From Candidatus Daviesbacteria bacterium (GTDB lineage Bacteria > Patescibacteriota > Microgenomatia > Daviesbacterales > UBA10151): DNA of 64,000 nt. Below, one piece after another: positions 25,706 through 46,943 of the stretch. The DNA lies in the NCBI GenBank assembly GCA_016176465.1, contig JACOXD010000006.1:71878-135877 (forward strand), read 5' to 3'. A program made the translations under genes and the position numbers. The notes under the pieces were generated by a model that worked only from the letters and a program-made list of their open reading frames with translations, had not been told where the DNA came from and searched no databases. Numbering within the stretch: position 1 is the stretch's first letter; every line of letters begins with the position of its first letter.

Positions 25706-26231
25706 AGTATCAATTATTTTTGTTAACTATAATGGAGGAAAACAGCCTATTGAGTGTTTAAAATCTATCTTTAGGCTTAATTATCCCCAAAGAAAAATAG
25801 AAATTATTGTAATTGATAACGGATCAACTGATGGTTCATTAAAGAAAATAAAAAGATTCCACAAGGTAAAACTAATAGAAAATAAAAGTAATCTTGGTTT
25901 TGCTGGATCTATTAATCAAGGAGTTTTAATTTCGAAGGGGGAATATATTTTTATGGGAAATGATGATATTGTCTTCGAAAAGGACAGCCTGCTTGAGATG
26001 GTTCAGTTTGCTAAGAGCCGTCCCGAGATAGGAGTAATTGGAGGAAAAATACTAGATAAAGTAAATCCAAAAAGAGTAATTTCTTTGGGATATTTTATGA
26101 ATAAAATAACTGGCAATGTTTATCCCAATAAGAGTGAGGATTTAAGTAAATCAATTGATTGGCTTCAAGGTTGTGCTTTGTTAATTTCCAGAAAGACTTT
26201 AAAAAAAGTAGGCCTTTTTGATCCGGTATAG
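25695..26231 (+). pseudogene. Truncated GT2 glycosyltransferase (N-terminal 178 aa only)
   Basis: VSIIFVNYNGGKQPIECLKS...IVIDNGSTDGS...MGNDDIV...ALLISRKTLKKVGLFDPV, then a stop where GT2 proteins continue (DEDYF...). The following 68-aa ORF (26218..26424) in another frame is not GT2-like. Confidence 0.5.
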
Positions 26232-26496
26232 AAATAAGATTCGATTTATGCTAAAAAACCTACCCTTAATTAATATTCTATCAATACTTTTTTTTCAATC
26301 TTTTCTAGTTATCCCCTACAGATTCTTGATCTTAAGAGACCGAAGATCTTTGCCCTATTTAAAAGGACTCTGGTGGAATATTTCAAATATTAAACAAACT
26401 TTTAAAGTAAGAGGAAAATTATGAAAAGCATTTAGCTTTTATTTTTCCTTTTGGAGTTATCTATTACACACTTGTGATTGATAAGGGCAGAAAACG

Positions 26497-27204: not shown

Positions 27205-27206
27205 AT

Positions 27207-28014: not shown

Positions 28015-30681
28015 ATGAAAAAAAGAATAATCAACACCACTATTACTTTTTCCCACTTAATTATCTTCTCTCTACTTTCTGCTTTAGTATCTTTTATTTA
28101 TTGGATCTGGGCTGGCAAAGATTATATTTTTGCTAAAACTCCAATAGGTGGAGATTATTTTAATGCCCTTACTTACGCTCAGTTTTTTAAAGATCACTTA
28201 AATCTACCACCCCAAGGTTGGGTACCTTTTTGGAATGAGGGTTCACCAATAATTAGTGGTTATCCTTGGGCTTTTTTTTATCTGCTTTATCCTCTAACTA
28301 AATATTTTGATCTTCCAACAGCCATGGATTATCTTTCCATAGCTTTCTTATTGCTATTTTTTATCTTCTCGCTCACCTTTTTTTATCAAGCTGCAAAAAA
28401 CTGGCTGGTTGCATCCGCTTTTGTGTTAATTCTTCTAATCACCCGTGCTAGTTATTATCCGTTAATGACTGGTGGATTTATCTCATCAGCTTCAGCCATG
28501 TGGTATTTACCAGCTATCTTATTTTTAATTCTAAAGTTTGCAGACTCAAAAAAACAATTTTTTTTAATTCTCGCTTCAATTTTAGAAGGTTTATCATTAA
28601 TTCACCATGCTCCGACCTCTTTACTTATGGTTATCGCTCCAACTACATTAGTATTAGCCTTACTCCCCAACCAAGGAAATATTAAAAAAAGATTTTTTAC
28701 TACCGTTAAATTTCTGATCATCTCTTTTTTAATTGGAGCAATGAGTTTATATACTGTAATCTTACAAGCCTATCTAGGATCAGGTTCCGGAGCCTGCGCA
28801 AGTCCCCAATGTTGGGGAATTTACCCGAAACATTTAATAACTTGGTTAAATCCCCTAACTTTAGGAATCATAGGGGGAGGTGTAATGCTAATCTTAATAA
28901 CCCGAATCATAAAAAGAGATTCTAAATCAGTAGAGTTATTGTTACCTTTACTCCTTGGATTTGCTTTTTTTGTCTTCTACGCAATGCTGGCAAAACTAGA
29001 ACTGATAAACGGCTTCGCCAACGTTATCTTTCCTACTAGAACTTTTTGGGCCGCAAATTTATTTGCATTGGGTATAGGGGCAATATCTTTTAGAATTTTT
29101 AATCTCAAATTTAGGAAAATTGGCCATATTTTAGCCTTAATTATCCTTATTGGCATAGCTATTCCGACTTATCTTTATTCTGTTCCTCCTGACATCCACC
29201 ATGACTTTACAGCTACAGATCCTTTGGATGTAGCCATCTATACAATCCCTAAATACCAAACAAAACAAGTCTCTGAATTAGTAGCGGACTTTGTACCACT
29301 TAATGAAGCAAACTGGAGGCTTGATTCATTTAACCCAGGACTCATACATTGGTGGAACTATGTGGCAACTACTCCCTCAGTGAGGGGGTATTCAAACCAC
29401 CCTGTTGGGAAACTTCGCGATTGGCAATATTTTTTACAAACATCAACCAGAGATCCTCAGGATGAAAACCAAGAATTAATTAAAAACAGAGCTCATTTTT
29501 TGATTGATGCTTTTGGGATAGGATTTAGAGATAATTCTGTAGCAAGTTACCCAATTTCCATCCTTTCTGATCAAAGCCTAATTACTAAATCTTCCCCCCA
29601 AATGCGCAGTTTCTCCTGGATGCAGCTTTCACAGGATAAATTTAGCCCTATTATTTATCCTACTAACTCCCCTGCTGTTTTGTTTATTGGAGACGAAGGA
29701 GGTTATGAGAATTTTTTAAGGGCAATTGCATTAGTTAATTTAAACTCAAAAGTTTTAACTCCGGTCAGAGGTCCAAACGACATAGGAAAAATATCACTAG
29801 ATGAATTAAACCAGTTTGATTTAGTGGTAGCTTATGGCTATAAAGGCAATAACTTCGACAAGATCGCTAGATATGTTAAAAATGGTAAAGCTTTATTTAT
29901 TGACACTGCCTCGGGAAGTGACCAGACACTTAAGAATACTGCTGATATTTTTCCACTTACTAAACTTTCTAAAAGAGAAGTTAAGGAAAGCTGGAAGTCT
30001 GTAATTGTAGGGCGGGAATTTGCTTTGAATGTTGATTCTAAGCTATTTAGCCCCTTCTCTTTTCAAGGAGGTAATTGGAAGTTAAACCTAGCTTCAGAAT
30101 CTAACCTAAGATCTTGGGGTAAAACCATTGTTAAACATAATCAAAATGTATTGATAGCAGGGGGGCAATTAGAAAAAGGTAAAGTTATCTGGAGTGGAGC
30201 CAATCTTTTCTATCATTTGGTTACTAATAATAACTTCGAGGAGGCTAAATTAATTAAAAACATTTTTGATTTTCTTTTACCAGAAGTGCAAGTTAAACCT
30301 GAATATAGCGTTAATCGAATTTCCCCGGAGAAAGCTATTATCGAGGCTAAAAATATCAGGGGTATTTACTTTAAAGAGAATTTTGACTTGGGATGGAGGG
30401 CAAAAATGAATGATCAATCTTTGAAAATTTATCCGGCTGGTATGGGTTTTATGTATGTACCTCTTAAGAAAGAAGTTAAAGAAGCTACCATCTCTTTAGA
30501 TTATGGGGGAAGTTTACTAGCCTGGTTGCTCTTTTTGATAAGTATCATCTCTTTTGTTTTTACCCTAATCTATTTACTACTTCCAAAACCTTTTATACTT
30601 ATATCCAGCGCCATCCAAAAACCAATTATAGAAAGATTTAATAAAAAAGTTAAGGAGTTACTTAAAGAAGAAGATGAGTAA
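28015..30681 (+). CDS. Large polytopic membrane protein, YfhO-like (GT-C-type glycopolymer glycosyltransferase candidate), paralog 1
   Basis: About 13 predicted TM helices in the first ~400 aa, then a ~430 aa extracytoplasmic domain, a C-terminal TM (LLAWLLFLISIISFVFTLIYLL) and an acidic tail KELLKEEDE. It is paralogous to 37972..40845 and 40818..43706. Confidence 0.5.
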   Translation: MKKRIINTTITFSHLIIFSLLSALVSFIYWIWAGKDYIFAKTPIGGDYFNALTYAQFFKDHLNLPPQGWVPFWNEGSPIISGYPWAFFYLLYPLTKYFDLPTAMDYLSIAFLLLFFIFSLTFFYQAAKNWLVASAFVLILLITRASYYPLMTGGFISSASAMWYLPAILFLILKFADSKKQFFLILASILEGLSLIHHAPTSLLMVIAPTTLVLALLPNQGNIKKRFFTTVKFLIISFLIGAMSLYTVILQAYLGSGSGACASPQCWGIYPKHLITWLNPLTLGIIGGGVMLILITRIIKRDSKSVELLLPLLLGFAFFVFYAMLAKLELINGFANVIFPTRTFWAANLFALGIGAISFRIFNLKFRKIGHILALIILIGIAIPTYLYSVPPDIHHDFTATDPLDVAIYTIPKYQTKQVSELVADFVPLNEANWRLDSFNPGLIHWWNYVATTPSVRGYSNHPVGKLRDWQYFLQTSTRDPQDENQELIKNRAHFLIDAFGIGFRDNSVASYPISILSDQSLITKSSPQMRSFSWMQLSQDKFSPIIYPTNSPAVLFIGDEGGYENFLRAIALVNLNSKVLTPVRGPNDIGKISLDELNQFDLVVAYGYKGNNFDKIARYVKNGKALFIDTASGSDQTLKNTADIFPLTKLSKREVKESWKSVIVGREFALNVDSKLFSPFSFQGGNWKLNLASESNLRSWGKTIVKHNQNVLIAGGQLEKGKVIWSGANLFYHLVTNNNFEEAKLIKNIFDFLLPEVQVKPEYSVNRISPEKAIIEAKNIRGIYFKENFDLGWRAKMNDQSLKIYPAGMGFMYVPLKKEVKEATISLDYGGSLLAWLLFLISIISFVFTLIYLLLPKPFILISSAIQKPIIERFNKKVKELLKEEDE

Positions 30682-32068
30682 AGAAGAAAAAATCCTAACC
30701 TTTTTAATCTTCTGCCTAGCCATAGTAATTCGAGTTTTCCTTATCTTTAACAAAGATCTTTGGTTTGATGAGGCAATCGCTTACTTTATTGCCATAGAAT
30801 CAATCCCTAATTTAATCCAAGCAGCTTTAGCTGATAACCAACTCCCCTTTTTTTATTTAATTTTGCATTTTTTTATTAAACTGTTGGGAGATAATGAATT
30901 TATTTTAAGATTGCCTTCCCTTTTAGCCAATTTAGCCTCATTGGTACTCATTTATTTATGGGGTAAGCAGTTATTTAAAGATAAAGGTTCTTTTTATTTA
31001 TTAGCATTAGCCAGTTTTTCCCCTTTAATGGTTTATTTTTCTGTTGAAGCCAGACCTTACTCTCTTTTAACCTTGCTTACTCTTTTATCCAGTTTTTTGC
31101 TTGTTAAGTTTATTAAAAAGAGTTCATTTAAGATTGGCTTCGGATTTTTTTTATGTTTATCTCTCTCTTTATATACCCACTATTTTGCTTATCTTTTATT
31201 TATTCCTTATTTTCTGATAGCCTGGATATATGCCAAGAAGGCTTTATTTTACCTGGCAATCTCTTTTCTTATTAGCCTCCCAATCATTAGCAGCTATTTA
31301 TATTTTCCTCATCCAGCAATTTTTTCTATAAACCCACTACTTGGTTTAGTGGCCACTTTTGCTTCATTTTTAATTGGGGGAGTTGGATCAATCAGCTTAA
31401 GAAGCTATCTAATTGACTCTCACATTCTGACTAGATTACTTAACTTCATAACCTTAGCTTTGGGACTATTTTTAGCCTTTAGAGGCACAAAGTTAGCTTT
31501 TAACTCAAACCATCTAAGATCCATCATATTAATCCTTTTTTTGCCTATATTTGCTTGCTTGCTTATCTCTTTTTTTATCCCCCTTTATTCAGCTCGTGCC
31601 TTTTCTTTCCTTGCTCCATATTTTTTTGTCCTATTAATATTTGATCTTAATAAATCCAAAAAAATATTAATTCTACCTTTGCTGGCATTTTTGGTGACCA
31701 TAAACATTTTGCCATTTATTGACCCCAAACTTTCTTATCCTCAAATTAAACACGCGACAAAGGCAATTGGCGATCAAAATACTATTTTGCACACCAGTGT
31801 ATTAACTTATTATCCATTTAAGTTTTACTCACCAAAACAGTCATTACTTATTGCTCAGAATCCTCTCTCTAGTAAAACTATAGAGATTATTGGTGGAAAG
31901 ATTAGTCAAATTCCTCTAAAAAAAGAGATTTATTTAGTTAATATAGACTATGGAAACAATCCAAGAGAAGTACTTAGAGTAAATAAAATTATAGAAAAAG
32001 AATACAGACTGATTGGCCAAAAGAGGTTAGGCTCTATAACCTTGTACCATTACAATCAGCATCAATAG
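30674..32068 (+). CDS. GT-C family membrane glycosyltransferase (PMT_2/ArnT-like)
   Basis: Polytopic; first extracytoplasmic loop DLWFDEAIAYFIA (the DE motif of ArnT/PMT-type GT-C). It overlaps the upstream paralog-1 gene by 8 bp. Confidence 0.5.
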   Translation: MSKEEKILTFLIFCLAIVIRVFLIFNKDLWFDEAIAYFIAIESIPNLIQAALADNQLPFFYLILHFFIKLLGDNEFILRLPSLLANLASLVLIYLWGKQLFKDKGSFYLLALASFSPLMVYFSVEARPYSLLTLLTLLSSFLLVKFIKKSSFKIGFGFFLCLSLSLYTHYFAYLLFIPYFLIAWIYAKKALFYLAISFLISLPIISSYLYFPHPAIFSINPLLGLVATFASFLIGGVGSISLRSYLIDSHILTRLLNFITLALGLFLAFRGTKLAFNSNHLRSIILILFLPIFACLLISFFIPLYSARAFSFLAPYFFVLLIFDLNKSKKILILPLLAFLVTINILPFIDPKLSYPQIKHATKAIGDQNTILHTSVLTYYPFKFYSPKQSLLIAQNPLSSKTIEIIGGKISQIPLKKEIYLVNIDYGNNPREVLRVNKIIEKEYRLIGQKRLGSITLYHYNQHQ

Positions 32069-32091
32069 TATAATCCCTCTGCCCTTAAACC

Positions 32092-33219
32092 ATGAATATA
32101 AAAATCGCGGTTATAACTGAATCTATTAACAATCATTCAGGCGCCAGGGCTCCGCTTGAGCTGGCAAAAAATTTATCCTTGCTTGGAAATGAGATAAGAG
32201 TTTATTCCTATAATAACAACTTAGATAAAACCGCCCTAAAGGAGCTTAAGGCAAGTAAAGTTACAGCTTCTTTATTATCCAAGATTAGGACTCCTTTTCT
32301 TAGTAGGAGTCTTCCCGATTTAAGATTAACTAAAAAAATTTGGCAAGATAAACCCCAAGTAATTATCTTTTGCGGCTCTTTTCCCTCATTTTGGGGGTCT
32401 AGATTAACCTTTATACCTTTAATCCGTATCTATATGGGAACACAATTCGGAGCTTTTAAAGAAAATTTTTTGCCAAACACTAAACTCTCACCTATTCAGC
32501 TAGCAATTAACCTTTTGACTGATTGCTTTATCTTTTTAACAGAACTACTTATGGTTTATTCTGCCAGTTACGTTATTGCAATTTCTAACTACGCGGCAGT
32601 TGAGCTAAAAAGGCTTTACAACAAAAAAGCTAATAAAGTAATTTATTTAGGGGGTAACCACTTAAGACATACAAAACCCTCTAAGTTTAGAAAAATAAGT
32701 AATTTAATCTCAGTCTCTCGAATAACTCCTTATAAGGGCCTCCATCTATTAATCGATTCATTAAGGGATTATTTAATAAAAAATAATCTGACTTTTACAA
32801 TTGTAGGCACCAAAGTTAAGGCAAACTATTTTAAATACCTTAAAAAGATTGCTGGAAGAGGAATTAAATTTGTAATTAACCCCTCGGACAAAGAGTTAGC
32901 AAAGCTCTACGAACAATCAGATCTATATATTAGTGCTGATAAATACCTATTTTTTGGCTTACCCATATCTGAGGTGGCTTTTTTTGCTAAACCGGCAATT
33001 TCCCTTGATTTTGGAGCAGCTAAGGAGTTAATCAATAATAATCAAACTGGGTTTATTGCTAAAAACACAAATGAGTTAGTTCCGCTTATAGACAAACTTT
33101 TAAAGAAGCCGAGTTTAAGAGTTAAAATGGGGCAAAATGCAAAAAAAAGAGCAAGTCAACTTTTTAACTGGAGAGAGATAAGTCTAATATACTTAAGATT
33201 CATTAAGTCTATTTTATGA
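32092..33219 (+). CDS. GT4 (GT-B) glycosyltransferase
   Basis: C-terminal region FGLPISEVAFFAKPAISLDFGAAKELINNNQTGF is GT4-like. Confidence 0.65.
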   Translation: MNIKIAVITESINNHSGARAPLELAKNLSLLGNEIRVYSYNNNLDKTALKELKASKVTASLLSKIRTPFLSRSLPDLRLTKKIWQDKPQVIIFCGSFPSFWGSRLTFIPLIRIYMGTQFGAFKENFLPNTKLSPIQLAINLLTDCFIFLTELLMVYSASYVIAISNYAAVELKRLYNKKANKVIYLGGNHLRHTKPSKFRKISNLISVSRITPYKGLHLLIDSLRDYLIKNNLTFTIVGTKVKANYFKYLKKIAGRGIKFVINPSDKELAKLYEQSDLYISADKYLFFGLPISEVAFFAKPAISLDFGAAKELINNNQTGFIAKNTNELVPLIDKLLKKPSLRVKMGQNAKKRASQLFNWREISLIYLRFIKSIL

Positions 33220-34970
33220 AGAAACCCATTTATATTTTAGGGATCAGTGAAAGTCACTGCGCCAGCGCAGCTTTACTTAAGGATGGTGAGCTGATCGCTT
33301 GTGTGTCAGAGGAAAGATTCACTAGAAAAAAATTACAATCAGGCATTCCTAAAAATGCAATTAAATATTGTTTTAATTTTGCCAAGATAACTGCATCTGA
33401 TTTATCTTTAGTCGCTTTAGCTGATTTTGAATCACCATTTTTGACTGCTAGGGAGTCTACTTACGACAAATTCAAAATTCTATCCATACTGGGGAAGCCG
33501 GTCTTATGGCTAGAAGAAAAAATAGAGAGAAAAGTTCCCAATTCCCAGGAACTTTTTTATCGAATTTATAGATTCTTTGCTAAATCGAACCAAACGCAGA
33601 GGCAAAAAAGGAGAATTAAAAAGCTAAAGGCTACAGTTTCTTTACCCTCAGATAAATTTAAGTTTGTCCAGCACCATCTTTGTCATGCCTCTGCGGCATT
33701 GTTTTCCTCTCCTTTACCCTCAAAGGAAAAAGAAGCACTCATTTTTACTTGCGATGGTGTAGGCGATTTTGAATCAGCTACTCTTTCAAAATACAGTGAT
33801 GATCGGATTAAAAAAATAGTCAGTATAAACTCTCAACAATCACTAGGTTTTTTTTATCAACATATCACCCAATTTTTAGGGCTTAAACCAATTGAGGATG
33901 AATATAAAGTCATGGGCCTAGCCCCCTACGCAGATCCGAAAAAAGCATTTCATACATATAAACTACTCTCTCCCTACTTCAAATTTAGCCTTAAGCAAAA
34001 CAAGTGGCAAATATTGGTAAGTGAACATCACCTTCAGGGAAAATTTCCCAAACTACTCCTTAATAAAAGATTTGACCATATCGCCTACTCTGCACAAAGA
34101 ATCATTGAAGAGTTACTAATAAGATGGGTAAAGAAAGCGCTAGAGGAATTTAAAATTAATAACCTAGTATTTGGTGGAGGAGTTTTCGCTAATGTTAAAG
34201 TAAATCAAAAAATTGCCAGCCTGGATAGAGTTAATAGCTCCTTTTTCATGCCCTCACCTGGTGATGAATCAAACGCCATAGGTGGTGCATTTTACTCTTA
34301 CTTTCAATTAACAGGGCAAAAACCCAAGCCTATCTCACATCTTTATCTTGGCCCACAGTTTTCGGAAAAAGAGATAAAACGATCTTTAAAAGGAAAATCA
34401 AAGTATAAGGTAGAAAAAATAAGTGACATCAATAGTACTCTTGCTAGGTTATTAGCTAAAGGAGAGGTAGTAGCTCGTTTTGCTGGTAGAATGGAATATG
34501 GAGCAAGAGCTTTAGGTAATCGTTCAATTTTAGCTAATCCTAAAAATCCATCCATAGTAGAATTCATCAATTCTGCTATTAAAAACAGAGATTTTTGGAT
34601 GCCTTTTGCCCCAACGATTTTAAGAAGCAATGCCAAGAAGTATTTAAAAATTCACTCAAGTGATTCTTTATTTATGAATGTTTCATTTGAAACAACAAAA
34701 AAAGCCTGGGAAGATTTAGCCGCGGCTTTGCATCCTTTTGATAAGACAACCAGACCTCAAATTCTGGATCAAGAGATAAATCCTAGCTACTATGATTTAA
34801 TTAAAAAATTTGAAAAACTTACTGGAGTGGGAGCAATACTTAATACTTCTTTTAATCTTCACGGTGAGCCGTTAGTTGCTAGCCCAGAAGATGCACTTCG
34901 GGTTTTTGACTCATCTAAGCTAAAATATCTTGCTCTGGAAAATATTTTAATAGAAAAAAAAGATGGGTAA
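33216..34970 (+). CDS. Carbamoyltransferase (NodU/CmcH/NovN family O-carbamoyltransferase)
   Basis: N-terminal ILGISESHCASAALLKDGELIACVSEERFTRKK (the YqgF/Kae1-like Carbam_trans_N signature) and HHLCHAASA. A 584 aa length is typical of the family. Confidence 0.8.
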   Translation: MKKPIYILGISESHCASAALLKDGELIACVSEERFTRKKLQSGIPKNAIKYCFNFAKITASDLSLVALADFESPFLTARESTYDKFKILSILGKPVLWLEEKIERKVPNSQELFYRIYRFFAKSNQTQRQKRRIKKLKATVSLPSDKFKFVQHHLCHASAALFSSPLPSKEKEALIFTCDGVGDFESATLSKYSDDRIKKIVSINSQQSLGFFYQHITQFLGLKPIEDEYKVMGLAPYADPKKAFHTYKLLSPYFKFSLKQNKWQILVSEHHLQGKFPKLLLNKRFDHIAYSAQRIIEELLIRWVKKALEEFKINNLVFGGGVFANVKVNQKIASLDRVNSSFFMPSPGDESNAIGGAFYSYFQLTGQKPKPISHLYLGPQFSEKEIKRSLKGKSKYKVEKISDINSTLARLLAKGEVVARFAGRMEYGARALGNRSILANPKNPSIVEFINSAIKNRDFWMPFAPTILRSNAKKYLKIHSSDSLFMNVSFETTKKAWEDLAAALHPFDKTTRPQILDQEINPSYYDLIKKFEKLTGVGAILNTSFNLHGEPLVASPEDALRVFDSSKLKYLALENILIEKKDG

Positions 34971-35661
34971 ATTTTACGACAACCAATACTTTAAAGATCG
35001 TGACTTTTTAGCTACTCATTTAGCTGAAGCTGTGGTGATTTTACTTAAATCACATAAGTTAAGAAAAATTTTGGATGTAGGATGTGGTACGGGCCGTTTG
35101 GTTAAATATTTAAATGATGTCGGGTTTGTGGCTAAAGGCGTTGACTTATCACCTATAGCTGTTAAAAAAGCTAAGGCTTTGGTTAAGAAAAAAAATACTA
35201 TTTTTAAAACTTCAGCCACCAAGCTACCATTTAAAAATAAATCTTTTGATTTAGTGATCGCCATTTCAGTTATTGAGCATATTAGCAATCTAGCGGTAGA
35301 AAAATTTCTTAAAGAAACTCATCGGATTTTAAAGCCAAAGGGGTTTATATTTTTAATTACTCCAAATCTTTCTACCCCAATCAGGCTTGTGCAAGGGAAA
35401 AATTGGTTTGCTTATAAAGATCCTACTCACATTAATTTTTATACTCCTTTAGGAATCGCTAGACAGTTAAAAGAAAATAACTTTCAAAGAATTAAGTTTT
35501 GGGCGAAGACTAAATACAATCAAAGCTTTGACTATGAATTTCCCACAGTTTACGCTAAATTACCTAGATTTCTGAAGATGTTTTTTATTTATTTATTCTT
35601 TTCTACTCCTATTGCCTTGATTAGAAACGCTGTTTGGATAATTGCTCAAAAAAATGACTAA
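34963..35661 (+). CDS. Class I SAM-dependent methyltransferase
   Basis: ILDVGCGTGRLVKYL (motif I), FDLVIAISVIEHI, and LKPKGFIFLITPN. Confidence 0.7.
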   Translation: MGKFYDNQYFKDRDFLATHLAEAVVILLKSHKLRKILDVGCGTGRLVKYLNDVGFVAKGVDLSPIAVKKAKALVKKKNTIFKTSATKLPFKNKSFDLVIAISVIEHISNLAVEKFLKETHRILKPKGFIFLITPNLSTPIRLVQGKNWFAYKDPTHINFYTPLGIARQLKENNFQRIKFWAKTKYNQSFDYEFPTVYAKLPRFLKMFFIYLFFSTPIALIRNAVWIIAQKND

Positions 35662-37975
35662 AATAGCCATAATTATAGATAAACTCCAACCTGGGGGAGT
35701 TCAAATAAGTGCGATTGAATACGTTCGCAACTTAAATAAGCTGAATCACCAAGCTAAACTTTTTATCCTAATGAGGGAAGAGATCGATCAAAGCCCCCCT
35801 TTGCTAACATCAGATGTACCCTTTAGTTATCTTTCTGATTCCTATCCCAAACCGTTTAGAAAAAGTATTAAATTTCCTTTTTTTAATTTTTTCTCTACCA
35901 ATCATCTTTGGTCAATACTTTTTGCTCCAAGACAATTTAGTAAAGATAAATTCGACATTATCATCGGAATGGGAGCTTCCACCTGTCTTACTGTAGCCTC
36001 AATCAGTAAATTAAAAAAGATTCCCTATATTGCCATAATTCATGACCCCATAACTTTTATTCTTAAAAAGTGCTACTATGATACTCCCCTAAGGTTTGCA
36101 TTTCCCATACTTTTGCCACTGGGAGAATTTTTGGAAAAAATAATAGTTAAATCAGCCACAAAGACTATTTTAATTTCCAAGGTTCATTTCAATTACTTTG
36201 TATCGAATTTTAAAATCCATCCTTTAATCTTACCCTTAAGCACAGATTTTCCTAAAAGATTATCCTCTAGAAAAAAAGAGCGAATTCTTTCCTTTGGCCG
36301 TTGGGATAATCAAAAAAAACCGGAGTTCTTGATAGAGCTAGCAAAGTCTTTGCCCAAAATTCCCATAACTATTGCTGGCAGCTGGACAAATCCTAAAGAA
36401 TTAGCTGATTTTAAACTAAAGATAGTTCAATCAAAACTTACAGATCAAATTCAAGTTACCCAAAGCTATACTAAAACTAAATTAGCTAGACTATGTCGTC
36501 AAGCCCTTGTCTGGGTTTATCCTAGCTTTGAATCATTTAGTCTTTCAGCATTGGAAGCAACATCTTTCGGATTACCTATTATTATCCCCGCCAAATCAGG
36601 TATAACTGAGTATTTTGAACATGGAATTCACGGTTTTTTTCCTAAAGGCTTGGATTTAAATGAATATAAAAAATACATTTTGAAACTACTTAGAGATAGA
36701 AGTCTTGCTGAGAGAATGGGTAACCTAGCCTACAAAACTGCCAAAAGTAAGTTTTCATCTCTAGCTAATACTAAAGATTTGCTAACTTCAGTTAATACAA
36801 TCTTAAATAAAGATAATCCAAGGATATTTGTCTTGGAAACTGCACACACTAAAGAAGCAACTCCAGCTGGCGGAGACTTACTTATGCGACCGATGGCTGA
36901 AAAGTTAAAAGAAAAGTTTAAATTTACAATTATTGTACCCAAAATTGCTAATAAATATTGGCAAGAAAGTCCAATCCATAAAGAAATTATCTCCCTCCCT
37001 CGGACTTCTCTTGATAATTCTGTTAATCCTTTTTCTATTTTTATCAATTATGTAATAAGAATAGTAAAATCAACGAAGATTTTACTTAATAACTCAAAAA
37101 AAGATACTATTTACTCATCAACTGATATTTTGACAGACACTTTCCCGGCTTTTATAACTAAGCTTATTCATAAAGATAGTAGGTGGATTGCAAGAGTACA
37201 CCACCTTATACCTCCCCCTCTTAACAGAGAAGGCAATTTTCTGGTTAATTTAATCTCTTTTTTACTACAGAGGATTTCAATTAATTTAATTAAACTTCAG
37301 GCTGATTCAATTTTAGCTTTAAATGATAATTTAAGAATAAACTTAGATAAATTGGGGTTACCCAAAGCTAAATTAAGGGTGTTGGGTGCTGGAATAAATT
37401 ATCATGATATATCCTCTCAAAAGGTCCTTACTAATACTAAATCATATGATGGTGTCTTCTTGGGTAGGTTACACCGTACTAAGGGGGTCTTTGATTTGAT
37501 CCCGATTTGGAAAGAGGTCGTTAAGAAATATCCAAAAGCTAGACTGGGAATTATTGGCAAAAGCTATGATAGTACACCTTTAAAACTAAAGAGACAGATT
37601 CAAAAATCAAATCTTCAAAAAAATATCTTCCTACTAGGTTACTTAAAAGAGAAAGAAAAAATTTCTATCTTAAAAAAAGCTAAGGTATTTTTATTTACTG
37701 ATCATGAAGCTGGTTTTGGGATAGCGGTTGCTGAAGCTATGGCAGCAGGACTACCTGTTGTCGGTTGGGACATTGGAATATTAGGGAATGTATATAAAGC
37801 AGGTTATCTTTGTAGCAAAAAAGGAGATTATCAAGATTTTGGGTTAAATATAACTAAATTGCTAGAGAATGGTCAAACTTACAAGAAAGTTTCTAGCTCT
37901 GCTCGCAGGGTAGCCTCGGGATTAGATTGGAGTAAAACATCTAATCAGTTTTTGAAAATTGCAGAACAAATTTAG
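35654..37975 (+). CDS. Tandem double GT4-domain glycosyltransferase (777 aa)
   Basis: Two GT4 C-terminal signatures, ESFSLSALEATSFGLPIIIPAKSGITEYF (~residue 300) and EAGFGIAVAEAMAAGLPVVGWDIGILGNV (~residue 700). The likely start is ATG at 35654 (MTKIAII). Confidence 0.6.
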   Translation: MTKIAIIIDKLQPGGVQISAIEYVRNLNKLNHQAKLFILMREEIDQSPPLLTSDVPFSYLSDSYPKPFRKSIKFPFFNFFSTNHLWSILFAPRQFSKDKFDIIIGMGASTCLTVASISKLKKIPYIAIIHDPITFILKKCYYDTPLRFAFPILLPLGEFLEKIIVKSATKTILISKVHFNYFVSNFKIHPLILPLSTDFPKRLSSRKKERILSFGRWDNQKKPEFLIELAKSLPKIPITIAGSWTNPKELADFKLKIVQSKLTDQIQVTQSYTKTKLARLCRQALVWVYPSFESFSLSALEATSFGLPIIIPAKSGITEYFEHGIHGFFPKGLDLNEYKKYILKLLRDRSLAERMGNLAYKTAKSKFSSLANTKDLLTSVNTILNKDNPRIFVLETAHTKEATPAGGDLLMRPMAEKLKEKFKFTIIVPKIANKYWQESPIHKEIISLPRTSLDNSVNPFSIFINYVIRIVKSTKILLNNSKKDTIYSSTDILTDTFPAFITKLIHKDSRWIARVHHLIPPPLNREGNFLVNLISFLLQRISINLIKLQADSILALNDNLRINLDKLGLPKAKLRVLGAGINYHDISSQKVLTNTKSYDGVFLGRLHRTKGVFDLIPIWKEVVKKYPKARLGIIGKSYDSTPLKLKRQIQKSNLQKNIFLLGYLKEKEKISILKKAKVFLFTDHEAGFGIAVAEAMAAGLPVVGWDIGILGNVYKAGYLCSKKGDYQDFGLNITKLLENGQTYKKVSSSARRVASGLDWSKTSNQFLKIAEQI

Positions 37976-40845
37976 TCCTCCTCCTCTTTCTCCCACCACT
38001 TTTGTGTCCTCTTTTGCAATTTATTCCAGGTATAGTTTTTAACTTTGCCGGAAATTATTCCTCTTAGAAGTATTAGCTCTAACAGAAGTAGTATGAGAAG
38101 GCCTGATAAAGTAATGATAACTTTGTGCTCAAGCGAGCCACTAAAGGAAAATTTAACCTCCATTTTATCCTTGCTCGGTAAAAAAACATACATATAGCCT
38201 GGAAAGGTGGGTCCAGCTTTAAAGATTTTCAGCTCTCCCCGCTTTCCGCTTGGAGTTTCATACCAGGCTCGCCAACCATCATAGGCTTGCTCTTTAAAAA
38301 GTACCCCCTTAGCATTTTCACCCTCGATTAACCTTAAATTTGGGTTTTTAAAATTAACCTGAAAAGGAATTGGTGGTTTTTTACTTAAATCAAGCATGCC
38401 GGAAAATATATTTTTAGCAAATTTTGCCTCTTCTTGATTGTGGTTTCGGGTAACATGGTAAGCAAAGTTTAATCCTGACCAAATAACTTTTCCACTCCCT
38501 ACAGCATAAGTTGCCATGACTACCTGATTTTTATTTTTAAGTATTATTTGAGCACCACTTCTTAGTTCTTTTTCTTCACCATAAGACAACTTCCACTCTG
38601 ATTCATCAAATATTGGCGCTGAGAATTTTTGAAAGTCAATTTCTTGATTAAACGGGTGGTTGCTAGCATCCAACTTCCATTCCTTACCCATTCCCCTTCT
38701 TTGAACCTTTTTAATTGGGAAAAAGTCCGGCAGTTCCCCTGATGATTGTTTCACTTCTACTCCGGTATCAATAAAGACTTTTTTTCCATCAGTTACATAT
38801 TGCTTTAGTCTTCTAAATACCGCTTCCCCATCTCCTACTTCATAATCATAGAGATAGAGAGCATCAAAATTTTGCAGAGTAGTTAAATCTATTTTATCTA
38901 AGGACCTACCAAGCTTAATTGGTATTAAAACTTGGGAATTAAGATTGTCTTTTTCAGCAATAAGTCTAATCACTGTTTCATATCCTTGATCTGATGCAAA
39001 TACCCCCATGGTGGGCACATTGGTCGCAGCCATTACCGGTGAAGTTACCTCAGGTTTAAATTCATAGTAATTTAAAGTTACCGGTCTATTAGTATATTTC
39101 TCATCATTGAAATCAAGTGTTTCTGTTTTATTAACTAGCAACTCTTGAAGATATTTAGGAACAGGTGTATAAACATTGCCGATATGACCACCCTCAAAAT
39201 AACGAATAGCGTTCCAGTCAACCAGGAATAATGCATTGGATATGGTTGTCTCCAGGGGGTATTTAAAGGATTTAACCAATTGTGGTTCACCTTCAGACTC
39301 AGAGAGTGCTGAATCAAGCCAAAATATATAACCACGCTGGCTGGCGTTTATCGGCGGGTCAATATATCCCCTGGCTAAAGGCATTTTAAACATACTGGGC
39401 CACCAGATATTTACAGTCTGATCTCCCTCATAAAATCTAAAATTGCTACTCTCACCATCAAGCCAAGCAGGAACTAACCTCTCTTTAAGTTTTTCTCGAT
39501 CAACCTCTGAAATCCTTAGATTCAAAATATCAGGATGGGCGGATGTAACTTGACCTCTATATATTAGATTACTAAGGGTTAAATTTATAGGGTAAGAGAC
39601 TAAATGGATAGCACCTACATAAATTACCACCAGGTTCAAAACTAAAATTGTTGCCAAGCGCAAAGTTTTTGTTTTGAAAAAAGTATTTAAATTATCGACA
39701 CTCGCTCTCCAAAAAACTGCAGCTAGCATACCTATCCAAATAGGAACTGACCAAAATAGTCTATACCAGCCTCCATGATAAATTGATATCCCTTCCCCAA
39801 AAAGCCAGACATAAAGAAAAAAATAGGCAGTAATCAGAACATATGGCAGTACTGTCAACATACTTTTTAAGTTTCTACTAATAATCAGGCTAAGTACAAA
39901 AACTAAACCTAACGTAGCGGCCATTATAAAAGGTAAAAGATGGTTATCAGTAACCACCCGTTGAACTTGGGCTCTGCTGAAGGTTTGTTGTATCTGTTGA
40001 TACTCTTTATCTGCGGCAGTAGTGGTCGAAAGACTTATCCTTTCGGTATCAGTCTGAATAGCCGCTTGAAGAGAGCCTTCAAAAGTAGAATAAAATAGCG
40101 GTAAACCAATAAGCAGCGAGACTAGCAAAAAAAACAACCATTGCTTTATCTTGGAAAAAATTCGCCATCCCCCACTCAAGTTGGCGAATATCAAAATAGA
40201 AACTGCTGGTAGAATATAAACCACAAAAATCAAAGGATGTCCCAAAATTGAGATTCCAGCAATTAAGACACTGGATAATAAATAATAAGGTTTAAAACTT
40301 TTAAGGTATAAAACCAAAAACATTAAGCTCCAGGGAAGGGCTGCTTGAGTACCGTAGCTTGGTAAGCTTCCCGCCCAAGTTAATGTTTGATAGACCCCCC
40401 CGGAAAATCCCACTGCAATACTTAAAAAGATAGACAAAAGAAAATTGCGGCTAATGGCGAAAAATAAAAAGTATGCTCCTATGATAAAAAGGGCGGCAGA
40501 TACCATCATCCAAATTTGAATTGAATAAACTAAATCAAAAAAGTTAGAAAAAAAATAAGCTATATACCCATGTAGCGGAGGATAAATGAAGGCCGGCCAC
40601 CCACCAAAGCCAGAATAATTCCATAGGGCAAAAGGTGCAACAAAGTTTTGCTTTAAAAGTTGTGTGATAGTTACGAGTAAATGAAAATCTACACCAAATA
40701 AGGGTCGGAAGTTTATATACCAATCTGCAATAGGTTTCCAGATATAGATAATCAAACTAATTGACAATAAGTGGAGCAAAATCAAAACAGGAAGTGTCAA
40801 CTTACCAATAATTTTCATCAAGCTTCCTCCTCTTTCTCCCACCAA
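37972..40845 (-). CDS. Large polytopic membrane protein, YfhO-like, paralog 2
   Basis: Same architecture as 28015..30681. Shared blocks include NIWWPSMFKMPLARGYIDPP, GSGKVIWSGLNFAYH, AGPTFPGYMYV, a C-terminal TM and the tail WWEKEEED. Confidence 0.5.
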   Translation of the reverse strand: MVGERGGSLMKIIGKLTLPVLILLHLLSISLIIYIWKPIADWYINFRPLFGVDFHLLVTITQLLKQNFVAPFALWNYSGFGGWPAFIYPPLHGYIAYFFSNFFDLVYSIQIWMMVSAALFIIGAYFLFFAISRNFLLSIFLSIAVGFSGGVYQTLTWAGSLPSYGTQAALPWSLMFLVLYLKSFKPYYLLSSVLIAGISILGHPLIFVVYILPAVSILIFANLSGGWRIFSKIKQWLFFLLVSLLIGLPLFYSTFEGSLQAAIQTDTERISLSTTTAADKEYQQIQQTFSRAQVQRVVTDNHLLPFIMAATLGLVFVLSLIISRNLKSMLTVLPYVLITAYFFLYVWLFGEGISIYHGGWYRLFWSVPIWIGMLAAVFWRASVDNLNTFFKTKTLRLATILVLNLVVIYVGAIHLVSYPINLTLSNLIYRGQVTSAHPDILNLRISEVDREKLKERLVPAWLDGESSNFRFYEGDQTVNIWWPSMFKMPLARGYIDPPINASQRGYIFWLDSALSESEGEPQLVKSFKYPLETTISNALFLVDWNAIRYFEGGHIGNVYTPVPKYLQELLVNKTETLDFNDEKYTNRPVTLNYYEFKPEVTSPVMAATNVPTMGVFASDQGYETVIRLIAEKDNLNSQVLIPIKLGRSLDKIDLTTLQNFDALYLYDYEVGDGEAVFRRLKQYVTDGKKVFIDTGVEVKQSSGELPDFFPIKKVQRRGMGKEWKLDASNHPFNQEIDFQKFSAPIFDESEWKLSYGEEKELRSGAQIILKNKNQVVMATYAVGSGKVIWSGLNFAYHVTRNHNQEEAKFAKNIFSGMLDLSKKPPIPFQVNFKNPNLRLIEGENAKGVLFKEQAYDGWRAWYETPSGKRGELKIFKAGPTFPGYMYVFLPSKDKMEVKFSFSGSLEHKVIITLSGLLILLLLELILLRGIISGKVKNYTWNKLQKRTQKWWEKEEED

Positions 40846-43706
40846 GAAAATACCTTCCGTCTTACCCTTTTTGTTAATCTAAAAATACGTCTACCCAACA
40901 CTTTTGAGTCAAGCAAAATATATTCCAGAATAAATAAAACAATAACTACATTGGTGATGGCAACTATCCAATAGGTTAACGTACCATTATATTGAAATTT
41001 AACATGAAGAGGCCAATCTTTCTGGTTGATTGGAACATACATAAATCCAGGAAAAGTTGGCCCAACTTTATAAATTGGCAGGGTTTTTCCATCCAAGGTT
41101 GCTCTCCAGCCTGGCCAAAGTTGTTCCTTAAATAAAATACCCTTAGCTTTTTGATCAGTCTTAATTTCAACATCCTCTGGTCGAAACCACTTTGTTTGGG
41201 CGGATAATGGAGCTTTCTCATCTATATTAGTAAAACTTTTTAATATATTGATAAACATATCTGCTTCTTCCTGAATCTTATATTGGTTATAGTGGTAAGG
41301 AAGATTTAATCCCGACCAAACAACCTTACCTGATCCCAGACTTCTCTCCACCAAAACAGGTTTCCCTTGATGTCTTAAGATTACCTTTGCCCCACTTCGT
41401 AGATCGCGATCATTTTCTAGAAAGGAAAGTTTCCATTCATCCTCATTAAAAATAAGTGGTCCAAACTTTTTTAAATCCAAAGAGGCAAGATATTCTCCCT
41501 CACCCTGTATCTCCCAACTTTTTCCTAAACCTTTTCTTTGCAATGAATTCATGGGGAAAATTTGGGGAAGGGAACTATAAGCAGACTCCTTTACTTCTGC
41601 TCCTGTATCAATAAAAACTTTTCCTCCTTCTTTAACATAGCGCTCAAGGATGCTAAATGCTTTATTTTTATTATGGTATCTATATTCATGAATGATTACC
41701 GCATCAAAAGCTTTAAGATCACTTAGGCTGTATTTATCAATATACTCTCCTCCCAAAACTGGAATTATTTTTTTTGAGTTTAAATTCCGTGAAGCGATAA
41801 TTCTTAAAATATCTTCATATCCTGGATCTGAAGTAAAAATTATTACAGCTGATGCATTGGTAGGGTACAGAATGGGGGAAGTTTGGCTATCTGCTACCTT
41901 ATAGAATCTTAAACTTTGGGGAATATCCAGATTAAGTTCTGGTTTCCCTGAAGCCGTTTGATATTTTATAAGCGCACCATGAGTAATTACCTCCTCTTCT
42001 TTATCAAACACTTTATTTTTTAGAAGATACGATGAGGGCGGAGCACTTGGCCCTTTGCTGCTTAATCTTCCTCCCTCAAAGTACCCTATTCCATACCAAT
42101 CAATTAAAAAGAGGCTATTTTGTAAAGCTACCGCTTCTTCAATTTTGAAATCTCGCACTAAAGTATCATTAGCTATACCAATATCCAACCAAAAAAAGCC
42201 ACCTTTTGAACGGGTTCCTACCGGTGGATCAATATAACCTCTTGCTAAAGGAACATCAAAAAAGCTATTCCACCAGATATTGACAGTTTGATCAGCTACA
42301 TACAACCTTTTATTTTTATCATCTGGTCTAATAAAGGAAGGTAGCACTTGAGCCTTAATTTTATCTAAATTTTCTTTTTTAAGGTTAAGGCTTAGGACCT
42401 CTGGGAAAGCTGATGAAAGTTCTGATTTACTATCAGCGACTTCAATTAGTTTATTTATATCAGAGAGATATATAACATATGTAGCTCCTAAAGCAGCGAG
42501 GCTAACAATTACAGCTGTCAATAAATTAACGCCCTTAAAAAAAATATTAATGTGTAATCTCTCTTTTACTGCAGATAAAGTAAATCCCCATAGAAATGCA
42601 GTTAGTAAAGCTAAAGTCACCGGGAACTGCCAAAAAGCCCGGTAGGGATCATGTCTAAGTAAGTTTAAATATCCCCCCAAATTAACAAATGGATGAAACA
42701 TGCTATAGCCAACAATTAATAGAAATGGCATCACTAAAAAAAGTTGCCCCTTTTTTCTAGCTAGAAAAAAGCCAAAAGGAAAAAGTACTAAGCCCAAAAT
42801 TAAAGCAATAAATAGCCATGAATTAGTTTGGGTAAATAAAAGATTAATTTGATCTCTATAAAAATTAGCAATTGCATCTGCTGCCGGACTAGAGGTGGTT
42901 GTGCGCGCAGTTTTACTAACAACACCTGATGGAAGGAGAACTTTTTGAGTCAACATATCTAGTAAGTATTTATAAGTAAAAACAAAGGCAGAAAATAACC
43001 AAGCTAGATTAAAAAGAAATAGATGTTTGATTACTTTTTTAGGGGAATAGCTTCTACTAAATGAGCCAAAAACGAGCATAATCAACAGGGAAGGTATTAA
43101 GAAAGCCAGCACTCCTAGAGGGTGAATAAGAAAACCCAAAGCAGTAACTAAACTCATCCATAGTAAGTTTTTAGTACTGGGATTATTTAGATAGTTATAA
43201 CCCATCAATAAACCCAAGGGTAGGAAAAGCTGAGAAGCAAAGTAAGGGATTGATCCCGCCCAAGTCAGTGAACCATAAATATTAACTGATAAAAGAACAC
43301 ATACTGCTAAGAAAATAGCTACTCCAAAATTTTTGGAGACTCTGAAAAAAAGTAAAAAGCAACAAAAGATAAACAGAAATAAAGAAGATAAGGCAAAAAT
43401 TTGAACTCCACTTGGAGCCCCATATTTGGAAGCAAATGGGACCATTGCATAATAGGTAAATTGGGGAAAATCAAGCATCAGTGGATAACCTCCAAACCAA
43501 ATATCTTTAAAACCATTAAATGGCATCGATAGGTGTTTTAAATGTATAGTGGCATGAGTAGCGCTGTTAAATAAATCAACCCCTAATGCGGGTACTTTAT
43601 TTAGATACCAGTTAAAAAAAGGTTCAAGAGCTTTATAAATTAAGGGGGCAGCCAGGATGGCGAGGAAAACATACGTAAAAGCTTTTAGGTAGGAGTTAAG
43701 CCGCAC
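40818..43706 (-). CDS. Large polytopic membrane protein, YfhO-like, paralog 3
   Basis: Shared blocks VNIWWNSFFDVPLARGYIDPP, GSGKVVWSGLNLPYH, VGPTFPGFMYV, a C-terminal TM and the tail WWEKEEEA. It overlaps the downstream paralog 2 by 28 bp, in operon fashion. Confidence 0.5.
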   Translation of the reverse strand: MRLNSYLKAFTYVFLAILAAPLIYKALEPFFNWYLNKVPALGVDLFNSATHATIHLKHLSMPFNGFKDIWFGGYPLMLDFPQFTYYAMVPFASKYGAPSGVQIFALSSLFLFIFCCFLLFFRVSKNFGVAIFLAVCVLLSVNIYGSLTWAGSIPYFASQLFLPLGLLMGYNYLNNPSTKNLLWMSLVTALGFLIHPLGVLAFLIPSLLIMLVFGSFSRSYSPKKVIKHLFLFNLAWLFSAFVFTYKYLLDMLTQKVLLPSGVVSKTARTTTSSPAADAIANFYRDQINLLFTQTNSWLFIALILGLVLFPFGFFLARKKGQLFLVMPFLLIVGYSMFHPFVNLGGYLNLLRHDPYRAFWQFPVTLALLTAFLWGFTLSAVKERLHINIFFKGVNLLTAVIVSLAALGATYVIYLSDINKLIEVADSKSELSSAFPEVLSLNLKKENLDKIKAQVLPSFIRPDDKNKRLYVADQTVNIWWNSFFDVPLARGYIDPPVGTRSKGGFFWLDIGIANDTLVRDFKIEEAVALQNSLFLIDWYGIGYFEGGRLSSKGPSAPPSSYLLKNKVFDKEEEVITHGALIKYQTASGKPELNLDIPQSLRFYKVADSQTSPILYPTNASAVIIFTSDPGYEDILRIIASRNLNSKKIIPVLGGEYIDKYSLSDLKAFDAVIIHEYRYHNKNKAFSILERYVKEGGKVFIDTGAEVKESAYSSLPQIFPMNSLQRKGLGKSWEIQGEGEYLASLDLKKFGPLIFNEDEWKLSFLENDRDLRSGAKVILRHQGKPVLVERSLGSGKVVWSGLNLPYHYNQYKIQEEADMFINILKSFTNIDEKAPLSAQTKWFRPEDVEIKTDQKAKGILFKEQLWPGWRATLDGKTLPIYKVGPTFPGFMYVPINQKDWPLHVKFQYNGTLTYWIVAITNVVIVLFILEYILLDSKVLGRRIFRLTKRVRRKVFSWWEKEEEA

Positions 43707-43745: not shown

Positions 43746-44933
43746 TTAAAAGAAGGCAATTAGGAGAAAAACTTGAGATATAAATGCTATATAGCTTGTT
43801 TGAATGATCCTGGAAAATAAAAGCAGCACACAAAGGTTAATTATAAAAAGTAGACTAAGCATTTCTATCTTTAAGTTTCTTTGAAATATCTTTCTTGCCC
43901 AAAGCAAAAAGATGACCTCGATAATAAGCTGGAAGATGTAAAATGGAAAACTCGAGCTGGGACTAATAACCTGCAAAGAAGATAACAGTTGTGGCAAACC
44001 TAAAAACCCAGCTATAACATGGGACTCTACTCCTCCTTTTAAATGAAAAAAGATTACATCCCCAACTAATCCAGGAAAATCCCAAACAGCAAAGGGTAGA
44101 TAAATTAACATGGTTAAGATCAGAAAAACTAAAATATTTTTTATAAATAAAGAAAGATTGCGATAACCTTTTATGTAGTAGAACAAAAAAATAAAGTAAA
44201 GCGGCACAAGGGGTAATATCAAAATTTTAGTTCCCAGTCCAAGTACCAACATGCTTGTAGAGAGTAGTGTCCGCTTATATTTCAAAAAAAACAAAACCAA
44301 GAAAATAAAAAACAACAAAATTGCTTCATTCGCTCCATAAAATGAAAGAGGAAGAAATAAGGGATTTAAGAAAAAAAAGCTGGCAAAAAGTATCTTTTCT
44401 TTTACAAGGCTACTTCCTACCAAACCTGCTAAAATTAAAAAAAATAACACTGTTACTTTAAAATCTGCAACCTTAAAAGCCTGCATTGAAAAAAACTGTA
44501 TCGGAGCATTAATAATAAACATTAGCGGTGAATACATATAATGTTCATAAACTTCTTTTAAGGGCGCTACATTAGTATTCTCAAAAAGTTTTTTGTAGTT
44601 GAAGGAGTAGGGATTTTTTCCATCTAAAAATGCTTGCGTAGCGAACTCCGTTAAAATTGCCCCATCATGTTTTTGCCACCTCTCCTCCCCTTTTAGAGAA
44701 AAAATCTTCAGGAATAAAAATATATACAAAGTAAGGATCAGTAATAAAAAAGCAAAAAAGCGAATGGAGTTGTTAGATTTTTTACCAAATAAGGTTAAGA
44801 TTGAGAAAATGAAAAAAAGTGTTAAAAGAAATGCTAGAATAATTAGCACCAACTGATTTGTCAAGTTTAGCACCCTTAAAATATTTACCAGCAATACTAA
44901 AAGAATTGTTGCTTCCAAAATATCTTTTTTCAT
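43746..44933 (-). CDS. Polytopic integral membrane protein (hypothetical; possibly a GT-C/DUF2029-like glycosyltransferase)
   Basis: 395 aa with at least 10 predicted TM helices and no soluble domain. It sits directly upstream of (co-directional with) paralog 3. Confidence 0.35.
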   Translation of the reverse strand: MKKDILEATILLVLLVNILRVLNLTNQLVLIILAFLLTLFFIFSILTLFGKKSNNSIRFFAFLLLILTLYIFLFLKIFSLKGEERWQKHDGAILTEFATQAFLDGKNPYSFNYKKLFENTNVAPLKEVYEHYMYSPLMFIINAPIQFFSMQAFKVADFKVTVLFFLILAGLVGSSLVKEKILFASFFFLNPLFLPLSFYGANEAILLFFIFLVLFFLKYKRTLLSTSMLVLGLGTKILILPLVPLYFIFLFYYIKGYRNLSLFIKNILVFLILTMLIYLPFAVWDFPGLVGDVIFFHLKGGVESHVIAGFLGLPQLLSSLQVISPSSSFPFYIFQLIIEVIFLLWARKIFQRNLKIEMLSLLFIINLCVLLLFSRIIQTSYIAFISQVFLLIAFF

Positions 44934-46929: not shown

Positions 46930-46943
46930 ATTTAAGTAAACAG

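Follow-up and report, generated by a model that had tools for sequence, protein, structure and literature searches.

YfhO (PF09586) is a large GT-C glycosyltransferase, an N-acetylglucosamine transferase for lipoteichoic and wall teichoic acids of Bacillus, Staphylococcus, and Listeria. YfhO combines an N-terminal GT-C core with a large outer domain, possibly involved in carbohydrate binding, and a C-terminal transmembrane (TM) helix, and it works with a GT2 enzyme that makes a C55-phosphate-linked sugar (PMC8035078). Another family, PF10131 ('PTPS_related'), is a member of the Pfam GT-C clan CL0111 and its function is listed as unknown (PMC7801869). A 64-kb stretch of Candidatus Daviesbacteria contig JACOXD010000006.1 (positions 71,878 to 135,877, hereafter the window; G+C content of about 34%) contains three large paralogous membrane-protein open reading frames (ORFs), denoted here P1, P2, and P3. 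Judging from profile and genome searches, they belong to a divergent branch of PF10131, itself an uncharacterised GT-C family, and this branch is restricted to Patescibacteria. It is probable that they represent anciently diverged GT-C paralogs of this branch, most likely outward-facing transferases of lipid-linked sugars.

The three ORFs reported in the initial annotation were recovered, and their homology extends over the full length, far above chance (BLASTP: 33% identity and E = 3e-163 for P2 versus P3; 26% and 1e-64 for P1 versus P2; 26% and 3e-73 for P1 versus P3). All of them share a multi-TM N-terminal domain, a hydrophilic domain of 431-489 amino acids (aa), a final TM helix, and a charged tail of about 21-30 aa. 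The sequence blocks said to be common to the three copies (NIWW..F..PLARGYIDPP, GSGKV.WSG.N..YH, and GPTFPG.MYV) are carried by P2 and P3, whereas P1 has degenerate versions (IHWWNYVATTPSVRGYSNHP, EKGKVIWSGANLFYH, and YPAGMGFMYV). The same holds for the WWEKEEE tail, which is shared by P2 and P3 but not by P1, where the WW pair is missing. The most likely start of P2 is the ATG at 40818, and probably not the TTG at 40845, since this ATG overlaps the P3 stop codon (TGATG) and sits behind a GAGGAGG Shine-Dalgarno site located inside the P3 tail codons. At 40821-40865 (- strand), the P3 tail codons GAG AAA GAG GAG GAA double as the Shine-Dalgarno sequence of the overlapping P2 start, so that one stretch is both a protein motif and a ribosome-binding site.

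P3 passes the gathering threshold of PF10131 (29.1 bits against 26.4), and the profile is matched by 26 of its 38 aligned relatives (best E = 1.3e-15, best score 57.3 bits). The matches are collinear: in some relatives they cover the TM part (protein positions 80-425 on profile positions 4-324), in others the ectodomain (profile positions ~463-621). P1 and P2 are placed in the PF10131 branch because of their homology to P3; the ortholog of P1 in another genome (locus L001, see below) matches the profile weakly. The membership in YfhO suggested by the initial annotation was not borne out, as PF09586 matched none of P1-P3 at E ≤ 0.1 or E ≤ 10 and none of the 38 relatives at E ≤ 0.01. DUF2079, another family proposed there for comparison, and GtrC were likewise without a match in P1-P3 or the 38 aligned relatives. 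The likeness to PF10131 thus consists in a two-part match to its hidden Markov model (HMM), comprising TM core and ThuA-like ectodomain, in P3 and the 26 relatives, while the P1-P3 branch differs by its strong divergence (P1 and P2 fall below detection), an added WW-x-K-EEE C-terminus, and three fixed orthologous groups. This gives the uncharacterised PF10131 a first structural and functional framing and flags a conserved C-terminal motif. P1-P3 are not a new kind of system; they appear to be a divergent branch of a well-known enzyme superfamily with a putative activity, and are of moderate interest for the envelope biology of the candidate phyla radiation (CPR).

The fold of the membrane core was assessed in an AlphaFold2 model of P3 built from the 38-sequence alignment (mean predicted local distance difference test, pLDDT, of 90.1; predicted template modelling score, pTM, of 0.87). 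The core matches about a dozen solved GT-C enzymes: Pmt4 (score 14.4), STT3B (14.1), AftD (13.6), PglB (13.6), ALG12 (13.4), AftA (13.3), and ArnT (13.2), as well as Pmt2, ALG9, DPY19, AglB, and AftB, and the top 60 matches of the model include no unrelated membrane fold. Foldseek placed STT3 first (E = 1.4e-6), followed by AglB, ALG12, AftD, and PglB. Together with an invariant Asp in the first outer loop and the predicted topology, the modelled fold supports the membership of P1-P3 in the GT-C superfamily, in agreement with the enzyme type initially proposed.

The topology, obtained for P3 by combining the model helices with hydropathy, is common to P1-P3: 11 TM helices, an ectodomain, TM12, and a basic-then-acidic tail (~30 residues in P3). 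The large domain is predicted to lie outside the cell, because the density of Lys and Arg over the 38 sequences is 0.26 in the predicted cytoplasmic loops and tail versus 0.058 in the short outer loops. This is the orientation that the initial annotation had assumed, and a cytoplasmic placement of the domain is not indicated. Residues invariant in the 38 sequences comprise G42, D44, G73, G151, P163, H195, F358, and W359 within the core (R356 is conserved in ≥ 90%), and all of these are located in loops predicted to face outward or at the edges of such loops. The G42-x-D44 motif is found in P1, P2, and P3 alike (the Asp lies within GGDYF in P1), and D44 is the sole invariant acidic residue of the TM core. 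By analogy with the acidic loop-1 residue of GT-C enzymes, Asp44 is a putative catalytic base. A second conserved cluster (R467, W478, W479, P486, R489-G490-Y491, and D536) is present in the membrane-proximal part of the ectodomain.

The ectodomain of P3 contains, in order, a membrane-proximal alpha/beta part with the invariant W478-W479 and R489-G490-Y491, a ThuA/GIFT-type domain (~613-830), and a beta-sandwich (~837-906). It provides the strongest single structural match of the P3 model, to ThuA/GATase1-like proteins; its fold also resembles the C-terminal domains of the glycosidases of families GH42 and GH164, and the GIFT domain of OST48/Wbp1. The latter, a subunit of the oligosaccharyltransferase (OST), has been proposed to bind sugar through this domain (PMC7226087). 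A role as a class I glutamine amidotransferase was rejected, since no Cys is invariant in the 38 sequences of the family and the Cys-His-Glu triad would thus be incomplete. The ectodomain is taken to be a non-catalytic domain of the ThuA/GIFT-like kind.

Distribution of the C-terminal motif was followed in 211 full-length relatives. In 172 of them, a WW pair falls among the 14 C-terminal residues, and 185 finish with an acidic run; the consensus is (K/R)(K/R)(V/I)x(S/G)WWEKE(E/D)E-COOH. Within the window, the acidic end is unique to P1, P2, and P3, and an ortholog of P1 in another genome retains SWWQKEDE. In relatives from Paceibacterota the tail reads W-D-K-x-EEEEY, while in non-Patescibacteria relatives the TM anchor and basic stretch are retained and the WW-x-K-EEE motif is missing; by this comparison, the WW-x-K-EEE C-terminus is specific to Patescibacteria. 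The possibility that the acidic tail is a mere by-product of the Shine-Dalgarno site of P2 was rejected, because P2, itself without a coupled gene downstream, has retained the tail, as have 172 of the 211 relatives.

P3 matches hypothetical protein HYS91_02940 of a Candidatus Daviesbacteria metagenome-assembled genome at 100% identity. A word-indexed search yielded 116 relatives, and the few with a named organism come from metagenome-assembled genomes (MAGs) of Microgenomates (Daviesbacteria, Curtissbacteria, and Chisholmbacteria), where all are annotated as 'hypothetical'. When 1.84 billion cluster representatives were scanned in full with the HMM, 599 matched at E ≤ 1e-30 and 1380 at E ≤ 1e-3. 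Full-length relatives in the GTDB species genomes all belong to Patescibacteria (Curtiss-, Levy-, Davies-, Chisholm-, Gottesman-, and Woesebacteria, CPR3, and some bins labelled as Saccharibacteria), most of them to Microgenomates. In the same genome set, the match is restricted to the ectodomain in Chloroflexi, Dormibacterota, Eisenbacteria, Actinomycetota, and several archaeal lineages; what distant relatives from Chloroflexi, Dormibacterota, Actinomycetota, and archaea have in common with the branch is the ectodomain plus the C-terminal TM anchor.

Loci on other genome contigs are referred to by L-numbers and relative proteins by P-numbers such as P0078. One-to-one orthologs of P1 (887 aa, 47.5% identity), P2 (963 aa, 42.5%), and P3 (959 aa, 43.7%) are encoded in L001, an 894-kb contig of another Microgenomates genome. 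In a neighbor-joining tree of 64 full-length relatives, three clades were recovered, and the window and seven other genomes each contribute one member per clade. The P3-P2 tandem recurs in at least 13 loci. Because the three orthologous clades and the gene order are conserved across genomes, the triplication appears to be old, and the recent duplication of P2 and P3 put forward in the initial annotation was rejected on the same grounds. Almost nothing is known about the cell envelope of Patescibacteria (CPR), most of which are uncultured; the conserved triad, common to Daviesbacteria, Curtissbacteria, Levybacteria, Chisholmbacteria, and Gottesmanbacteria, offers a concrete handle on how their surface is built or decorated.

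Some variation was observed among the more remote or unusual relatives. Distant ones from other Patescibacteria and Anaerolineae also occur in tandem pairs or triples (L057 at 1872-13287; L029, L032, L045, L058, L062, and L065), so tandem multiplicity seems to be a general habit of the wider family. A C-terminal extension of ~350 aa past the end of the profile is present in L002 (6013-9954) and in P0078, P0085, P0093, P0119, P0128, and P0133 (1264-1338 aa), while P0175, with 2159 aa, is twice the normal family size. The same family and synteny are found in MAG contigs of the TPA_asm type titled 'uncultured Gammaproteobacteria bacterium' (L007-L012, L016, L017, L019, L024, L026, L030, L033, and L053); these titles are probably placeholders or errors.

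Table 1. Positions of the three paralogs, of the parts of P3, and of associated glycosyltransferase genes in the window
Feature	Position	Strand	Remarks
P1	28015..30681	+	888 aa; PF10131-like GT-C paralog, the most diverged of the three; tail ...KELLKEEDE
P2	37972..40818	-	948 aa from ATG 40818; open to TTG 40845; second in tandem; tail ...KWWEKEEED
P3	40818..43706	-	962 aa; first in tandem; NCBI name hypothetical protein HYS91_02940 (Candidatus Daviesbacteria); copy modelled
P3 residues 1-413, 11-TM GT-C core	42467..43706	-	Invariant residues in loops predicted to face outward or at their edges
P3 Asp44 codon (GVDLF)	43575..43577	-	First extracytoplasmic loop, 8 residues past TM1; putative catalytic base
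P3 residues 414-906, extracytoplasmic domain	40989..42467	-	
P3 ThuA/GIFT-type GATase1-like domain, residues ~613-830	41217-41870	-	
P3 residues 907-962, last TM helix and cytoplasmic basic helix ending SWWEKEEEA	40821..40988	-	
PMT_2-type GT-C glycosyltransferase, 464 aa	30674..32068	+	ATG 8 nucleotides (nt) inside the P1 end (ATGAGTAA); 'FDE' motif after TM1
395-aa polytopic GT-C protein, PIG-M/ALG3/ALG6/PimE structural class	43746..44933	-	39 nt upstream of P3
GT2, 268 aa, without TM helix	20749..21555	+	PF00535; candidate polyprenyl-phosphate sugar synthase
GT2, 229 aa, without TM helix	54940..55629	+	Best match ArnC (NF007986, E = 1.9e-18, residues 5-223, below cutoff)

From the paralogy, fold, topology bias, conservation, and synteny of P1-P3, we infer catalysis with a lipid-linked donor, an acceptor, and possible complex formation as follows. 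A sugar would be loaded onto polyprenyl phosphate at the cytoplasmic face, a step for which the soluble GT2s at 20749 and 54940 are candidates, and the lipid-linked sugar would then be flipped across the membrane. There, each paralog would transfer it to an extracytoplasmic acceptor, with the invariant loop-1 Asp acting as the base. The acceptor might be held by the ectodomain; the ~43-kb glycan cluster that surrounds P1-P3 could build it, either as a polymer of the envelope or as a surface protein. As the copies correspond to fixed orthologous groups, a difference between them in donor, acceptor, or linkage is most likely. Diverged GT-C paralogs, each with its own specificity, would be a reasonable picture, similar to that of mycobacterial EmbA, EmbB, and EmbC; this likeness, which the initial annotation had also drawn, is an analogy and consists in several diverged, partly tandem GT-C paralogs in an envelope glycan locus. 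Compared with GT-C enzymes that depend on polyprenyl-phosphate monosaccharides (PMT1/2/4, ArnT, AftA/AftB/AftD, ALG9/12, and DPY19), the core of P1-P3 has 11 TM helices versus 11-16, and the outer domain is different; a C-terminal TM anchor is present in addition, followed by a tail in the cytoplasm.

Several observations weigh against this interpretation. Neither P1 nor P2 alone has a Pfam or NCBIfam match, even at E ≤ 10, the family profile gave chance matches only (E about 2) against PDB sequences, and the neighbor-joining tree carries no support values. The equation of Asp44 with the catalytic Asp is positional. Matches of the candidate polyprenyl-phosphate sugar synthases at 20749 and 54940 are far under the family cutoffs, and both lack any hydrophobic segment, unlike GtrB, CsbB, and ArnC with their C-terminal TM helices; for the former GT2 the best NCBIfam matches are PgfS, PpgS, ArnC, AglJ, and a dolichyl-phosphate hexose transferase, all far below curated cutoffs. 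No flippase was recognised within the 64-kb window. Since no functional study of PF10131 or 'PTPS-related' proteins was found in the literature searched, the activity, donor, and acceptor proposed here draw on analogy; the same literature yielded no functional study of GT-C enzymes in Patescibacteria/CPR.

Two further GT-C genes adjoin the paralogs. The product of ORF 30674-32068, described in the initial annotation as PMT_2-like, clearly passes the threshold of PF13231 (E = 1.2e-13; 52.1 bits against 26.1). The 395-aa protein encoded upstream of P3 matches the PIG-M/ALG3/ALG6/PimE class in fold and has a conserved acidic residue in its first long outer loop; an invariant H89-D90 follows TM3, and a G-x-N-P-Y motif is present. 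Its family and that of P1-P3 are unrelated at the sequence level, as the hhalign comparison of the two profiles was not significant (probability of 11%). The region holds five GT-C enzymes, not three enzymes with helpers. The notion that each paralog is paired with a smaller polytopic partner applies best to P1, which overlaps the PMT_2 gene by 8 nt here and adjoins such a gene in L001, L012, L014, and L036 as well. For P3 it applies in part, the 395-aa gene being upstream of it in only two other loci (L003 and L008), and it does not apply to P2, whose neighbour is P3. In L003 and L011, a PMT_2-like gene is located between P3 and P2.

Because stop and start codons overlap between P3 and P2 and between P1 and the PMT_2 gene, co-production of these pairs is suggested, possibly as hetero-oligomers by analogy with Pmt1-Pmt2 and EmbA-EmbB. 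A bolder and unlikely extension would unite the co-translated P3-P2, P1 with the PMT_2 protein, and the PIG-M-like enzyme into a Patescibacteria-specific multi-subunit machine on the outer face, assembling or attaching a lineage-specific envelope glycan. It could act on surface proteins in an OST-like manner (with W478-W479 as an analogue of WWDXG), and WW-x-K-EEE might be a new docking or sorting signal coupling it to cytoplasmic donor synthesis.

Activity of P1-P3 as oligosaccharyltransferases or ligases, transferring an oligosaccharide en bloc from polyprenyl diphosphate to a surface protein (N- or O-linked) or to a polymer, seems distinctly unlikely. STT3, AglB, and PglB give the best Foldseek matches to the core, the ectodomain resembles OST48/Wbp1 with its GIFT-like fold (PMC7226087), and the invariant WW pair, ~50-65 residues past the last core TM helix, could correspond to the acceptor-binding WWDXG motif. 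The many cytoplasmic GT4, GT2, methyl-, and carbamoyltransferases in the cluster would also suit the assembly of a complex lipid-linked oligosaccharide, and a Wzx-type flippase gene is located two genes upstream of the P3 ortholog in L001. However, the motif is (I/H)WW(N/P)(S/Y) and not WWDXG, the soluble domains are organised differently from those of STT3/AglB/PglB, and similarity at the sequence level is absent. OSTs coordinate a metal ion through several acidic residues, whereas D44 is the only invariant acidic residue in the TM core of the family. Moreover, PMT, Aft, ArnT, and ALG enzymes, with their polyprenyl-phosphate monosaccharide donors, score equal to OSTs in the fold comparison.

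It is improbable that P1-P3 represent the YfhO-family GT-C part of a classical GtrB/GtrA/GtrC-type system adding single sugars to teichoic acid or O-antigen, as the initial annotation had proposed. The overall architecture (TM core at the N-terminus, large outer domain, TM helix at the C-terminus) is the same as described for YfhO (PMC8035078); besides, the cluster encodes GT2s with PgfS, ArnC, and PpgS as best matches, and a TagF-like glycerophosphotransferase (62832-63881). However, the profile comparison favours PF10131 (26 of 38 relatives) over PF09586 (none of these or of P1-P3). No GtrA-family (GtrA/GtcA) protein was found within the 64-kb window, nor a GT2 with a TM anchor of the GtrB/CsbB type, and the three-component scheme is thus unsupported there. 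The supposed GtrB-like proteins are indeed GT2s with sub-threshold matches to polyprenyl-phosphate sugar synthases, but they have no C-terminal TM helices. The 'GtrA-sized' ORF 20420-20782 (- strand; 120 aa) was rejected for the GtrA role, since it has only two hydrophobic segments and no GtrA match. This ORF is TTG-initiated, overlaps the divergent GT2 start by 34 nt, has no match to any family, and may not represent a genuine gene as delimited here. Membership in YfhO is therefore unsupported, although the mode of action of P1-P3 might be YfhO-like.

That P1-P3 are not transferases at all, but scaffolds, accessories of glycan export or polymerisation, or outward-facing hydrolases with the GT-C-like core as a membrane anchor only, is highly improbable: the ectodomain does give the strongest structural match, to ThuA/GATase1-like proteins, and resembles GH42/GH164 C-terminal domains, but the matched GH42/GH164 parts are themselves non-catalytic, the Cys of an amidotransferase triad is missing, and the conserved positions cluster in the outer loops of the TM core, among them the Asp in loop 1 that active GT-C enzymes typically carry.

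The ~43-kb glycan cluster extends from ~20.4 kb to the end of the window. It encodes six GT2s, several GT4s (one of them a double-GT4 fusion), at least five methyltransferases, a NodU-like carbamoyltransferase, two aminotransferase/formyltransferase sets, dehydratases, epimerases, sugar-nucleotide enzymes, NeuB with a cytidylyltransferase, and a TagF-like gene. The carbamoyltransferase (33216-34970, +) and the S-adenosylmethionine-dependent methyltransferases (at least five, including those at 24653-27971 and 34963-35661, +) are placed among the glycosyltransferases, which suggests a glycan bearing carbamoyl and methyl groups. At its C-terminus, the methyltransferase at 24653 matches the IBR zinc finger weakly. 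The product of the double-GT4 gene (35642-37975, +) is 777 aa long and comprises two GT4 units, both complete (two Glycos_transf_1 stretches); the end of the gene overlaps that of the convergent P2 by 4 nt.

An Arn-like module is located at 50343-57248 (+), with genes for a 4,6-dehydratase (50343), a nucleotidyltransferase (51345), an epimerase/reductase (52045), a DegT aminotransferase (52953), a formyltransferase with a C-terminal domain (54044), and the ArnC-like GT2 (54940). The end of the latter overlaps by 4 nt the start of a gene for an unassigned 540-aa polytopic protein (55626), which has 'HSD' just after its first TM helix and may be an ArnT-like GT-C enzyme for a formylated amino sugar. 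A second amino-sugar set (45832-49523, +) comprises a DegT aminotransferase, a GNAT acetyltransferase, a formyltransferase, and an epimerase, and is flanked by GT2s at 44955 and 49523. The genes at 57280-62835 (+) code for a NeuB-type synthase with a SAF domain, a HAD/cupin protein, a short-chain dehydrogenase/reductase, a cytidylyltransferase of the cytidine monophosphate (CMP)-sugar type, and a full-length transketolase-like protein, and look like a nonulosonic or ulosonic acid pathway in the cluster. The TagF-like gene (62832-63881, -) contains a cytidine diphosphate (CDP)-glycerol glycerophosphotransferase domain (PF04464, 37.7 bits), which hints at a teichoic-acid-like polymer as a possible acceptor.

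Elsewhere in the window, at 8597-10937 (-), the match of the 366-aa argininosuccinate lyase ORF to the Lyase_1 profile is limited to positions 97-312, and the ORF overlaps that of argininosuccinate synthase by ~100 nt; it may be truncated or its start may be miscalled. Leucyl-tRNA synthetase (14116-16484, -) is encoded by two ORFs with a 46-nt overlap. One covers the N-terminal catalytic part (188 aa) and the other the region from the editing to the anticodon-binding domain (615 aa); this could be due to a frameshift or an assembly error, or the gene could be genuinely split.

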